A stretch of DNA of 64,000 bases from Nitrospinales bacterium. Its GTDB lineage: Bacteria; Nitrospinota; Nitrospinia; Nitrospinales; VA-1. This document shows positions 4,145 through 53,194 of the stretch, one piece after another; position 1 is the first letter of the stretch, and each line of letters starts with the position of its first letter. The translations under genes were made by a program, and so were the position numbers. The stretch spans positions 2,336,001 to 2,400,000 of the forward strand of contig OZ253496.1 in assembly GCA_965262115.1 (NCBI GenBank), in the 5' to 3' direction. The notes beneath the pieces were generated by a model, which searched no databases, was not told the origin of the DNA, and saw nothing but the letters and a program-made list of their open reading frames with translations.

Positions 4145-5062
4145 TTATTCCGTGTAATCCCTTTGAGCGGTTTTTAATATTTCAACGACTAAATCATCAA
4201 ACCCTAGTCCCATCTCCCGAGCCGCCATCGGTAGAAGGCTGGTGGGGGTCATTCCCGGGACGGTGTTCATCTCCAGGACCTGAGGGACTCCGTCGTTATC
4301 CAGAATGACATCCACGCGGGGGAAACCTCTTCCCCTTAACATCTGAAAAACCTGTTTTGCGGTTTGCCTGCACCGGCCTGTTTCGCTTTCCTCAAGGTTT
4401 GCCGGGCAGATGTATTCGGTTTTCCCCGAGGTGTATTTTGCCTCGTAGTCATAAAATCCGGACTTGGGACGGATGTGAACAATTGGCATGGGTGTCATTT
4501 CATTCATTCCAATTGCCAGAAGTTTTCCTTCAATAAACTTTTCTACAATCACTTCTTCAGAATAAGCGAAGGCGTCTTCCAATGCTGGTTTCCATTGGCT
4601 TTCGGTTTTAACGATGGTTACTCCCAAACTCGACCCTTGATTGGTTGGCTTGACGACAACGGGAAGATCCAAACCCCGGTCTGTTTTTTGGTTTTTATAG
4701 AACACTTCATAATCGGCTGTGGGTATTCTATGGAATTTTAAAATTTCCTTGGATTTTAATTTGTCATATGCCAAAGCACTGCCCATAACCCCTGACCCGG
4801 TGTAAGGAATTTTGAAATATTCAAGCAAACCTTGAACACATCCGTCTTCCCCAAAGGTCCCGTGCAGGGCAATAAAAGCCATGTCGATCGGATTCGACTT
4901 GAGGGTCTCCCCAATATTATGGTCAACGTGAATCGGCAAGGCGGTCAATCCTTTCCTGTTTATGGCCTCAAGGACCGAGTTTCCGGTGACGATTGAGACC
5001 TCTCGCTCGGGAGAAAGTCCTCCCATGAGCACTCCAATGGTTTTACCTTTTAAATTATCCAA
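4145..5062 (-). CDS. ddl: D-alanine--D-alanine ligase
   Basis: GGLSPEREVS, LHGTFGEDG, GSSLG, YDYEAKY, EMNTVPG. Confidence 0.97.
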   Translation of the reverse strand: MDNLKGKTIGVLMGGLSPEREVSIVTGNSVLEAINRKGLTALPIHVDHNIGETLKSNPIDMAFIALHGTFGEDGCVQGLLEYFKIPYTGSGVMGSALAYDKLKSKEILKFHRIPTADYEVFYKNQKTDRGLDLPVVVKPTNQGSSLGVTIVKTESQWKPALEDAFAYSEEVIVEKFIEGKLLAIGMNEMTPMPIVHIRPKSGFYDYEAKYTSGKTEYICPANLEESETGRCRQTAKQVFQMLRGRGFPRVDVILDNDGVPQVLEMNTVPGMTPTSLLPMAAREMGLGFDDLVVEILKTAQRDYTE

Positions 5063-33802: not shown

Positions 33803-33844
33803 GTGTTATGCCCCCTCATTAGCTTTCATGCCCCGAAGGGATAG
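33803..33844 (+). repeat. REP-like repeat copy
   Basis: GTGTTATGCCCCCTCATTAGCTTTCATGCCCCGAAGGGATAG; near-identical to the reverse complement of 49288-49323. Confidence 0.8.
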
Positions 33845-47972: not shown

Positions 47973-48104
47973 TGGTTGTTTCCGGCGAGCCGCCGGGGGC
48001 AATTTGCAATGATTCGTTGAGCCGAGAATACGGTTGCTAGCAGTGATTAAGTTATTGCCAGTTGTACCCCTTCTACCCCTTCTACCCCTTTGTATGTTGT
48101 TCAT

Positions 48105-48312
48105 AAGGGGAATTTGTAGTAGTTGTACCTGTGAGCCCTGTGGGAAGCCGGTTTTGTGTTTTCCACAAGGCTCACAGGGTTTGATTCAGGGCACAATAGA
48201 TCGTTTACCCCTTGGGCTTTTAAGCCCGTCCCGAAGCGCAGATCGTTGTGTCCTATTTTGATTAACCCGAACAGTTGCCTGGGCCACTGAGCCCGCATCG
48301 GCAAGGCTGGGA
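48105..48312 (+). ncRNA. Bridge RNA (5' hairpin, target-binding loop, donor-binding loop); ends approximate
   Basis: Hairpin 48128-48178; target loop 48188-48254 with guides TTTACCCCT and CCCGAAG; donor loop about 48266-48311 with ACAGTTGC and GCAAGG. Confidence 0.85.
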
Positions 48313-48321
48313 GACCAAATT

Positions 48322-49272
48322 ATGAATCAGAAACCCCATTTTATTGGCATCGATATTTCTAAACTCCATCTGGATGTTGCTGACAGCATGACTCAAGAAA
48401 CCTGGCAAACCGCTAACAATGAAGAAGGGATTGCTGGTTTGGTCGAGAGTTTATCCGCCTTAAATCCTCCATTGATCGTTTTGGAAGCCACAGGCGGCTT
48501 AGAGATCCCGTTGGCTTCGGCCCTGGTTGCGGGTCGACTGCCAGTAGCCGTGGTCAACCCACGGCAAGTTCGTGATTTTGCCAAAGCCACCGGGAAACTG
48601 GCAAAAACCGATGTCATTGATTCTCTTGTGCTGGCCCATTTTGCCAAGGCCATACGTCCTGAGGTCAGGAAAATCAAAGACGAAGAATCTCTTGAACTCT
48701 CAGCTCTAGTGACACGCCGTCGCCAGTTGATCGAGATGCTGACCAAAGAAAAAACCCGTCTAAAACAAGCTCCAAAATGGATATGTAAAGACATTAAGGA
48801 GCATATCGAATCTCTTAAAAAACGCTTGCGAAAAATCGATGGCGACCTTTCCAGAACCATCAAAAACAGTTCTGCCTGGCGTGAGCACGACCAGATCATA
48901 CAAAGTGTTCCCGGTGCCGGTCCCGTTCTGGCTGTCAACCTCTTGGCCGGGGTTCCGGAACTTGGAGTTCTTAATCAGAAGCAAATCGCCGCCCTCATCG
49001 GTCTCGCTCCCCTCAATCGGGACAGCGGAAAGTTCCGGGGCCGCCGGTGTATCTGGGGCGGCCGCGCCAATGTGCGTGCCGCTTTATACATGGCCGCCGT
49101 CACTGCCATGCAGCATAATCCCGTGATTCGTACCTTTTACACACGCCTCATCGAAAAGGGCAAACCCTTTAAAGTTGCCATTACCGCATGCATGAGAAAG
49201 TTATTAACGATCATCAATACCATGATCAAAACAAAAACACTCTGGAATGAAAATCTCATTGCCAGCACTTGA
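48322..49272 (+). CDS. IS110-family DEDD recombinase/transposase
   Basis: GIDISK (D), LEATGG (E), KTDVIDS (DxxD), SVPGAG, GLAPLNRDSGKF (catalytic Ser), RAALYMAA. Confidence 0.97.
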   Translation: MNQKPHFIGIDISKLHLDVADSMTQETWQTANNEEGIAGLVESLSALNPPLIVLEATGGLEIPLASALVAGRLPVAVVNPRQVRDFAKATGKLAKTDVIDSLVLAHFAKAIRPEVRKIKDEESLELSALVTRRRQLIEMLTKEKTRLKQAPKWICKDIKEHIESLKKRLRKIDGDLSRTIKNSSAWREHDQIIQSVPGAGPVLAVNLLAGVPELGVLNQKQIAALIGLAPLNRDSGKFRGRRCIWGGRANVRAALYMAAVTAMQHNPVIRTFYTRLIEKGKPFKVAITACMRKLLTIINTMIKTKTLWNENLIAST

Positions 49273-49287
49273 CATTTAACACAGTTG

Positions 49288-49358
49288 CTTCGGGGCATGA
49301 AAGCCAATGAAGAGGGCATAACAGGGGCATGAAACTTTTGGAAGAGGATATCACAGCC
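49288..49358 (-). repeat. Two tandem REP-like repeat copies; the first is interrupted by the IS110
   Basis: CTTCGGGGCATGAAAGCCAATGAAGAGGGCATAACA followed by GGGGCATGAAACTTTTGGAAGAGGATATCACAGCC. Confidence 0.85.
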
Positions 49359-49417
49359 CCTTGCCTTCGGCAGTCGCGTTAGCGTTACTGCCGCGCTGCC
49401 ACTGGCGGCCTCGCCGA

Positions 49418-49912
49418 TTAGAGCCAACCGTTTTCTGTGGCGATATTGTTATAGTCGTGCCAGTTTTGCGCGTCTGCGTTTTCGAGCATATATTCATCCA
49501 TAGCCAGTACTAATGGATGGCCCTTGTTGACAAAGGATTGCACCGTCGGAAACCGCAAAACAAAAGTGGTGACTGCGGCTTTACCCAAAGTCATGATATT
49601 CGGATCTTTTGCTATAGCCTTGAGGACTTCTTCAGCATTTTCGGGAGTGATCGACTGGAACAATTCCGCTGTTTTTTCTTCCAGTTCAGGATGATCATCG
49701 CAAGCGACGGCGGCGAGCATCTGCAACTCAAGAATCTTTTGATAGTCGGCTTCGTCGTATTCCCCTTCCATACGACCTTCTTCCCAGGCCGATCCCTCCA
49801 AATTACGTTCCCCCGGGCTGTCTCTACGTTCAGACGTTTCTGAAAATGCCAGATTTGCTTCATCCAGCAGGATTTTGGCTTTAACTTCCGCGCTGGTTTC
49901 TGTGTTGGACAT
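49418..49912 (-). CDS. Acidic hypothetical protein
   Basis: 164-aa ORF with protein-like composition; GGAG upstream. Confidence 0.75.
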   Translation of the reverse strand: MSNTETSAEVKAKILLDEANLAFSETSERRDSPGERNLEGSAWEEGRMEGEYDEADYQKILELQMLAAVACDDHPELEEKTAELFQSITPENAEEVLKAIAKDPNIMTLGKAAVTTFVLRFPTVQSFVNKGHPLVLAMDEYMLENADAQNWHDYNNIATENGWL

Positions 49913-52734: not shown

Positions 52735-53194
52735 GTCATGTCATGCTGAGGCCCTCGAAGCATCCTCCTTTGTCATCCTGAGCCTTCCGTGATATCCCCC
52801 AACCTATAACATCATGAGCGTGTGATATTTCTTCCATCGGTTCGTGCCCCGAAGGGGTACTCACGCAGGTGTCCTAACCGCTAGACGAAGGGGCCGGAAT
52901 AACCAACAGGAGTGGATCGCCGCGCCGTTTTTACCGGCTCGCTATGACGAACACCTCGACCCTTCGACGTGCTCAGGGTGACAAGCTAACCCACTCAATC
53001 CCATCGAACAAGACGTATTCCTATTGTTCGAGTTATCAAGGGGAGGTTTAAAAGTCCACACCCCTCCCAGCCTCCCCTCATGATAGGGGAGGAGTTTTTT
53101 TTATCTGTGTGAATCTGTGGTTAAAAAAGGTTTTCACTGGCCCCACGCTTTGGCAGTCGCGTTAGCGTTTCTGCCCACGTTGGCCCTACGCCTA
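52735..53194. repeat. Intergenic mosaic of several palindromic repeat families
   Basis: GTCATGCTGAG/GTCATCCTGAG…CTCAGGGTGAC, GTGCCCCGAAGGGGTAC, TGGATCGCCGCGCCG…CTCGCTATGACG, CCCCTCCCAGCCTCCCC…GGGGAGG, CACTGGCCCCACGC. Confidence 0.75.
52866..52895 (-). pseudogene. 5' half of a tRNA (Glu-like), truncated at the anticodon loop
   Basis: GGCCCCT TC GTCTAGCGGTTAGGAC A CCTGC = acceptor 5' strand, D-arm and anticodon 5' stem; no T-arm follows. Confidence 0.65.

Follow-up and report, generated by a model that had tools for sequence, protein, structure and literature searches.

The window analyzed here, a stretch of 64,000 nucleotides from contig OZ253496.1 of a Nitrospinales bacterium, contains at positions 48088-49289 a 1.2-kb insertion sequence (IS) of the IS110 family, on a single contig of 2.68 Mb. 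Very probably, this element combines a DEDD/serine recombinase with a likely bridge RNA, encoded in the leader that precedes the gene, whose guides match the site in which the element itself is inserted. The evidence supports its consideration as an IS621-type bridge-recombinase element with a target specificity of its own.

Guides, insertion sites and their covariation

In the sense of the predicted RNA, the left target guide reads the same as the left flank of the element followed by the CT core, and the right target guide corresponds to the core followed by the right flank, in reverse complement. In the window copy, the left guide agreed with the left flank plus core (TCTACCCCT, 48081-48089) in 8 of 9 positions, and the right guide CCCGAAG was the exact reverse complement of CTTCGGG (49288-49294); both matches had been reported in the initial annotation of the window, and both were confirmed. 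When the leader was submitted to 20,000 mononucleotide shuffles, the two matches appeared together 3 times.

A blastn search of the genome yielded 23 full-length copies of the element, 21 of them with 98.5-100% identity and two with about 88%, besides fragments. The initial annotation had contemplated that other copies could lie at sites unrelated to the guides; what was found is that core plus right flank was the reverse complement of the copy's own right guide, with 7/7 matches, in 23/23 copies. The left flank matched the left guide in 7/7 positions in four copies, 6/7 in six, 5/7 in ten, 4/7 in one and 3/7 in two. It is worth noting that the two copies with about 88% identity carry the right guide CCCGCAG and are inserted at CT-GCGGG, and the other 21 carry CCCGAAG at CT-TCGGG, i.e., the guide change from A to C goes with a change from T to G in the target. 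The base T48213, immediately 3′ of the left guide, was considered as another reader of target position 10, as it changes from T to G with the target in the two diverged copies; it was not counted as a guide base because most orthologues keep T there whatever the target.

The same relationship was studied in orthologues. When one genome was scanned for each species, 80 loci were obtained, the nearest ones in Nitrospina (73% protein identity) and Nitrospinaceae (65%) assemblies, and the remaining ones, with 48-59% identity, in Dehalococcoidia, Nitrospira, cyanobacteria, Burkholderia and others. The guides were taken from fixed alignment columns, the left flank from the first CTTGTAT upstream, and the right flank from after the last downstream match to the locus's own left donor guide followed by CT; six loci without a right boundary and three without a left boundary by these rules were left out of the respective counts. 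Considering the five variable positions of the right guide (n = 32), the match to the own flank was perfect in 24 loci and reached at least four positions in 28, with a mean of 4.5, versus 0.1% of perfect matches and a mean of 1.34 in mismatched guide-flank pairs. For the seven positions of the left guide (n = 35), the means were 4.63 with the own flank and 2.43 with mismatched ones. In neither case was the observed mean reached by any of 10,000 permutations. Among three loci of close relatives recovered from metagenomes by DNA pattern (L111, L112 and L113), L111 carries CCCGGAG at CT-CCGGG, which fits and provides a third guide/target pairing at position 10. So, the covariation of guides and targets, both within the genome and across about 30 orthologues of several phyla, bears out the proposal of the initial annotation that this is a natural orthologue with its own target specificity.

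Concerning the donor guides, ACAGTTGC of the left one reproduces the right end of the element and the core base that follows it (49281-49288), with agreement in 8 of 9 positions overall. In orthologues it changes together with the right end (ACGGTTG, ACAGCTG, ACAACTG, ACAGTCG, ACAATCG), a comparison that is partly circular because the right end was located by that guide. The right donor guide is complementary to the core and left end in two separate blocks, CAAG to CTTG and CAU to ATG, so its pairing would be interrupted. Covariation of donor guides was seen for the left one only; the first base of the right donor guide bore no relation to left-end position 15 across the orthologues.

Table 1. 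Position of the features of the IS110-family element and its insertion site in the window.
Feature	Position	Strand	Remarks
Left target half-site (LT) TCTACCC	48081-48087	+	Part of a repeat of the repetitive extragenic palindromic (REP)-like type; left guide match 6/7; TACCC here in 20/23 copies
CT core dinucleotide, left copy	48088-48089	+	CT flanks both ends in 23/23 copies
Extra T between core and left end	48090	+	In the window copy alone; the other 22 full-length copies are without it
Element left end, right donor half TGTATGTT	48091-48098	+	Includes -10-like TATGTT, 48093-48098
Leader 5′ hairpin, 51 nt	48128-48178	+	In the minimum free energy fold; common to Nitrospina-lineage relatives only
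Covariance-model match	48186-48315	+	105.3 bits, E 1.6e-23
Target-binding loop	48188-48254	+	Stems AGGGCACAAT 48188-48197/GTTGTGTCCT 48245-48254 and GATC 48199-48202/GATC 48241-48244
Target-loop left guide TTTACCCCT	48204-48212	+	
Target-loop inner hairpin	48214-48227	+	
Target-loop right guide CCCGAAG	48230-48236	+	Candidate handshake bases 48237-48238
Donor-binding loop	48266-48311	+	Stem CCC 48266-48268/GGG 48309-48311
Left donor guide ACAGTTGCC	48271-48279	+	
Donor-loop inner hairpin	48280-48295	+	
Right donor guide CATC-GG-CAAG	48296-48305	+	Candidate handshake bases 48306-48307
Shine-Dalgarno-like GGAG	48310-48313	+	Overlaps the 3′ arm of the donor stem; from sequence, with a putative role in translation
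Recombinase gene, 316 aa	48322-49272	+	DEDD RuvC-like domain and Tnp domain with Ser-Gly
Candidate -35 hexamer TTGACA	49269-49274	+	Overlaps the stop codon
Element right end, left donor half ACAGTTG	49281-49287	+	Identical in 23/23 copies; same as the left donor guide
CT core, right copy	49288-49289	+	
Right target half-site TCGGG (49290-49294), running into the REP-like repeat GGCATGAA...	49290-49330	+	

Predicted leader RNA, recombinase and comparison with known systems

The leader (48090-48321) comprises 232 nt of non-coding DNA, without a credible open reading frame (ORF), located directly 5′ of the recombinase gene. Its minimum free energy fold (-85.6 kcal/mol, z -3.34 versus shuffles) contained the 5′ hairpin, both closing stems of the target loop and the inner hairpin of this loop. 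Thus, the non-coding leader of about 230 nt, the long 5′ hairpin and the target loop with its stems, guides and inner hairpin, all proposed in the initial annotation, were found in their places; the donor loop was absent from it.

The structure was evaluated in an alignment of 38 leaders (A1): that of the window copy, that of one diverged copy, and those of 36 loci selected to represent each distinct leader type once. Loci that repeated a leader already included were omitted, and so were five cyanobacterial ones, which carry large insertions. Both loops aligned column for column, the donor loop was the most conserved block, and the left boundary C-CT-TGTAT(C/G)T was visible, CTTGTAT(C/G)T being conserved at that boundary in the orthologues. 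Standard pairs occupied 92.5% of the cells, versus 34-47% when the partner was slid by 1-3 columns, and changes on both sides occurred at 19 of the 26 stem pairs (in the target loop, at 12/14 outer-stem pairs and 3/4 inner-hairpin pairs); the observed values were reached by none of 500 shuffles on any measure. The structure tested was drawn from the sequence of the window copy, itself a row of the alignment, which favours the figure of paired cells but does not explain the compensatory changes. Within the genome, the inner hairpin of the donor loop shows a compensatory change in the two diverged copies, from GGGC/GCCC to GGAC/GTCC. An analogous change was sought in the 5′ hairpin and discarded: the T to C and A to C changes of the diverged copies leave a C-C mismatch, and this hairpin has no support from covariation.

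A covariance model was built from 34 orthologous leaders, whose proteins share at most 59% identity with the query, the window copy, the diverged copy and two Nitrospina-lineage relatives being left out. Its match to the leader (Table 1) was the sole significant one in the whole window, the next one having an E value of 0.51. These comparisons of sequences demonstrate a conserved, covarying two-loop structure predicted for the leader RNA, and they bear out the bridge-RNA architecture of IS621 recognized in the initial annotation.

The Rfam search of the leader matched no bridge-RNA family at any threshold. The best match was RF02234 (sX15), at 48175-48331 of the minus strand, covering both loops (35.4 bits, E 9e-4). 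Membership of this family was rejected, because the score lies below the gathering score of 55 and the strand is opposite to that of the predicted bridge RNA. sX15, a small RNA from a Xanthomonas plasmid, is complementary to another transcript, asX7, and 10 homologues exist in Stenotrophomonas maltophilia (Schmidtke 2011, PMC3300014). From the position and strand of the match, asX7 may represent a bridge RNA of the IS110 type, with sX15 transcribed antisense to it.

The 316-aa protein contains the Pfam domains PF01548 (1.6e-24) and PF02371 (1.9e-20), and scored 226.1 bits with NCBIfam NF033542, "IS110 family RNA-guided transposase", versus a curated cutoff of 140. When it was compared with solved structures by phmmer, the best match was ISCro4 (PDB 9t56, E 9e-33, residues 1-304), a likeness that concerns the protein only; IS621 (8wt6) gave an E value of 5.8e-30. 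In the alignment to 8wt6, D11, E55, D97 and D100 lie opposite D11, E60, D102 and D105 of IS621, and S235-G236 opposite its nucleophile loop S241-G242, such that the full DEDD set and the Ser-Gly serine attributed to this protein by the initial annotation were corroborated. These positions were counted by hand through the printed alignment, where the chain numbering is the native one plus 2, and the roles of the IS621 residues were taken from Hiraizumi 2024 (PMC11208158).

The resemblance to IS621 of Escherichia coli thus covers the two protein domains and the five catalytic residues. It extends to an RNA placed in the left end upstream of the gene, with a 5′ hairpin followed by the target loop and then the donor loop; to left guides that read the bottom strand and right guides that read the top strand; to the CT core; to a discontiguous right donor guide, the pairing of which is interrupted in IS621 as well (Durrant 2024, PMC11208160); to a candidate -35 hexamer in the right end and a candidate -10 hexamer in the left end; and to REP-type targets. 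The handshake bases are another common trait. According to Hiraizumi 2024 (PMC11208158), the two bases located 3′ of the core-pairing part of a right guide pair with the other DNA and not with their own. Here, C48237, 3′ of the core part of the right target guide, would pair with donor G7 and not with target C7; for G48306, which lies 3′ of the corresponding part of the right donor guide, the predicted partner is target C7 and not donor G7. As judged by these predicted pairs, the rule holds at position 7 in both loops, each base being complementary to the non-cognate DNA as in IS621.

On the other hand, the window protein is distant from that of IS621 (316 aa versus a solved chain of 328 residues), and the right target guide has 7 nt (5 plus core) versus 4 in IS621, longer right target guides being known from some orthologues (Durrant 2024, PMC11208160). 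Other differences are a C as second core base in the left donor guide, the 51-nt length of the 5′ hairpin, the overlap of the putative ribosome-binding site with the donor-loop stem, and the target (T)TACCC-CT-TCGGG in a Nitrospina-like genome. The likeness of the RNAs is one of architecture. With respect to the ribosome-binding site, most orthologues have GGAGG 10-25 nt further downstream than the GGAG of the window copy. Because the latter overlaps the donor-loop stem, one may speculate that RNA folding might mask the ribosome site in this lineage. ISPpu10 and ISPpu9, IS110-family elements of Pseudomonas putida, resemble the window element, by their descriptions, in that they insert into multi-copy intergenic stem-loop repeats; a difference is the position of the CT core, which in the window element is within the hairpin loop.

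Systems of this kind are known since 2024, and the NCBI family model already names such proteins as RNA-guided transposases. The papers of that year already describe natural orthologues that have REP targets and right guides of greater length; the present lineage may itself be included in the supplementary lists of orthologues and guides of Durrant 2024. What is added here is a well-documented natural orthologue from a marine nitrite-oxidiser-like lineage, together with a natural experiment within one genome, in which guide and target of two sublineages differ by one matched base. The 7-nt right guide, the family of 138 target sites described below and the pair of sublineages make it convenient for testing mismatch rules, handshake positions and the role of the target hairpin. 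The element could likewise be added to genome-editing panels as a candidate, and the picture of how such elements work is unchanged.

Junctions, mobility and alternative readings

CT is present at both junctions of the window copy, and terminal inverted repeats were not found, as the two ends compared in this way agree at only 11 of 30 positions. At the left junction, 22 of the 23 full-length copies share the sequence ...ACCC-CT-TGTATG; the window copy alone has ...ACCC-CT-T-TGTATG. The extra T was reproduced by a contig of a public run that spans the junction (X1, record 1), a run which may be the assembly's own source. In run X1, over 48044-49301, the contig word depth is about 4,450-4,800 along the element and about 230-237 in the unique flanks; the ratio of about 20 fits roughly 23 copies, although contig depth is no measure of copy number. 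In a related organism (X7, flanks about 94% identical), a 56.6-kb contig joins position 47981 to 49418 with 87 other letters between them, and therefore the element is absent from that locus there. A separate 1200-nt version of the element, carrying 41 differences, is present in that run; among the differences listed, none falls in either target guide (30 more are unlisted).

The family of this element has been recently active in this genome. A six-frame search found 15 loci with an uninterrupted frame of 316 aa, 7 of them identical to the window protein, besides seven copies of a 1190-nt type, in which the frame is split into 239 and 81 aa, and the two diverged copies, with stop codons. The split copies share a 10-bp deletion (1418002, 1463652, 1635421, 1896474, 1935079, 2013361 and the truncated 2034345) and lie at several places, most of them inside or next to an IS3-family element or sharing its right part. 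Their spread was considered as a proof of mobilisation in trans and rejected as such, since passive copying or recombination between copies would fit equally. The statement of the initial annotation that the system is probably active can thus be maintained for the family, with its 21 near-identical copies at no fewer than 15 distinct left flanks and its 15 intact ORFs, and not for the window copy with its extra T. Likewise, the donor ACAGTTGCTTTGTA proposed there for a recombination assay has one T more than the family junction, as 22 of 23 copies lack T48090.

The ends of the element contain the two halves of a possible promoter. TTGACA lies 15 nt before the right end, in a place where 29 of 35 orthologues have a match of at least 5/6, and the left end gives TG followed by TATGTT, so the spacer across the consensus circle junction would be of 17 nt. 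By analogy with IS621, the two hexamers would come together as a promoter at the junction of a circle. A simple consensus scan of the integrated copy gave no promoter-like site on the plus strand, which fits the published rebuilding of the promoter in the circle of IS621 (Durrant 2024, PMC11208160) and the weak expression of RNA from integrated IS621 loci (Hiraizumi 2026, PMC13626964).

The mechanism, in all that goes beyond base complementarity (circle, transcription, tetramer and serine cleavage), is taken from IS621 and would be as follows. The element would excise as a circle (Durrant 2024; Hiraizumi 2024, 2026), the joined right and left ends of which would create a TTGACA-17 nt-TATGTT promoter for transcription of both the RNA and the recombinase. 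The RNA would be held by a tetramer of the recombinase, its donor loop pairing with the circle junction ACAGTTG-CT-TGTATG and its target loop with (T)TACCC-CT-TCGGG. Cleavage by the serine would take place after CT, followed by a strand exchange that would leave the element between two copies of CT.

Several observations weigh against this reading. The extra T at 48090, in one of 23 copies, separates the left core from the left end; were the window copy to form a circle, this T would displace the pairing of the right donor guide by one base and lengthen the promoter spacer to 18 nt. In the left donor guide, C takes the place of U as the second core base. No joint of right and left ends, as expected of a circle, was present in the contigs of four public runs, an uninformative result because contigs drop rare forms; all the public runs listed for this DNA are stored as contigs, and none of them is registered as RNA. 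Ten copies lie within one IS3-family repeat, which leaves fewer than 23 independent insertions, and the copy at 2144781 sits at TTGTGTC-CT inside another copy, with a left guide match of 3/7. Among the orthologues, the left guide matched 7/7 in 0 of 35 rows, and its first one or two positions rarely matched. As to the metagenomic loci, L113 has CCCGTAG at CT-TCGGG, with one mismatch at position 10, and L112, with a duplicated left end, has CCCGGAG at CT-TCGTG, which does not fit.

The extra T gives rise to another interpretation, which we consider rather unlikely without dismissing it: the family would consist of bridge-RNA elements, but the window copy would be stuck, supplying recombinase and RNA in trans, since the T would spoil recognition of the left junction and cause either a poor excision or a circle with mis-spaced donor site and promoter. 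It is in agreement with this that the T, peculiar to one copy out of 23, was reproduced in the contig across the junction, that core plus left end reads CTTT in place of CTTG, the partner of CAAG in the right donor guide, that the spacer would be of 18 nt rather than 17, and that the excision of IS621 reportedly relies on recognition of the donor arm (Xie 2026 preprint). However, a discontiguous right donor guide may tolerate a shift of one base, a spacer of 18 nt is still in the usual promoter range, and the ORF is identical to those of six other copies, as the RNA region is to that of most copies.

Two further explanations concern the guides themselves. The protein could choose its target by reading the REP-like hairpin (CCCC-TNC-GGGG), the leader being only a translational or stability leader, and the likeness of guides and flanks a result of the common descent of the copies. 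The CT core does lie in the loop of a small hairpin belonging to a 138-copy repeat, the stem-loop of the ISPpu10 target adds specificity (Na 2026 preprint), and the 21 main copies share one guide, so that the match within them is inherited and not independent. Nevertheless, guides and flanks change together across independent lineages with unrelated targets (24 of 32 perfect versus 0.1%), and within the genome the guide change from A to C accompanies that from T to G in the target, which makes this explanation very improbable. The structure of the target hairpin may add specificity; it cannot alone explain the covariation of guides and flanks. As for mere chance in a GC-rich, structured leader, the matches are indeed short (7 and 9 nt), but their joint rarity in the shuffles and the occurrence of the same relation in 23/23 copies and most orthologues leave this possibility effectively refuted.

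The target repeat and its neighbourhood

The insertion site belongs to a repeat, TACCCCTNCGGGGCAYGAAG..., of which the genome contains 138 unoccupied copies. Only 26 of these empty sites fall in stop-to-stop frames of at least 150 aa, frames that make up 79.5% of the genome, and this rarity in long frames is why the repeat is called REP-like. The CT core occupies the loop of the small CCCC/GGGG target hairpin (CCCC-TNC-GGGG). The variable base N, position 10 of TACCC-CT-N-CGGGG, is A in 42, G in 38, C in 30 and T in 28 of the empty sites. Unoccupied paralogues of the window site, with the same TACCCCTTC-TACCCCTTCGGGG arrangement, are found at genome positions 618625 and 2328672.

Copies whose right guide has A, C or G at the reading position are found at T-, G- or C-type sites, respectively, and the main lineage occupies 21 of 49 T-type sites. 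From this we tentatively propose, as a possibility to which we give somewhat less than even weight, that the IS110 sublineages of Nitrospina-like bacteria share out one family of REP-like repeats by reprogramming a single base of the right guide. If true, natural guide evolution and competition between insertion sequences would have been caught in one genome.

In the window itself, a perfect, unoccupied target of the T type, GAGTACCCCTTCGGGGCAC, lies at 52847-52859 of the minus strand (2388847-2388859), 3.6 kb from the window copy, and a repeat unit similar to the right flank was also matched at 33807-33838.

Concerning the IS3-family element, it measures 1290 bp (695240-696530, orfB NF033516 1.9e-102) and has 16 further copies. 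The 915 bp to the left of IS110 copies such as that at 657569 belong to the same element. Its orfA/orfB overlap contains an A-AAA-AAG motif and one unit of the REP-like target, and exactly at this unit the IS110 element interrupts 10 of the 17 IS3-family copies, 7 being uninterrupted. Downstream of the repeat unit, orfB is in the +1 frame relative to orfA, not in the -1 frame, and therefore the IS3-family element itself may be defective. As to the left flanks of the IS110 copies, about 920 bp are common to nine of them, and there are 14 unique left flanks besides that group.

Two rearranged loci were also observed. At 2144618-2145980, the first 165 nt of an older copy of a different subtype, with a normal left junction, run straight into a complete copy at TTGTGTC-CT-TGTATG, the junction being at a CT in the 3′ stem of the target loop and the complete copy being followed by a normal right flank; this arrangement may come from off-target recombination and a subsequent deletion. 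At 2518287-2519437, rearranged fragments were found: a right-end piece (last 111 nt) in reversed orientation is followed by the IS3-family element, then by left-end bases 1-89 and by bases 57-1 inverted, which results in a palindrome with the 5′ hairpin at its centre and a second, inverted occurrence of the left target.

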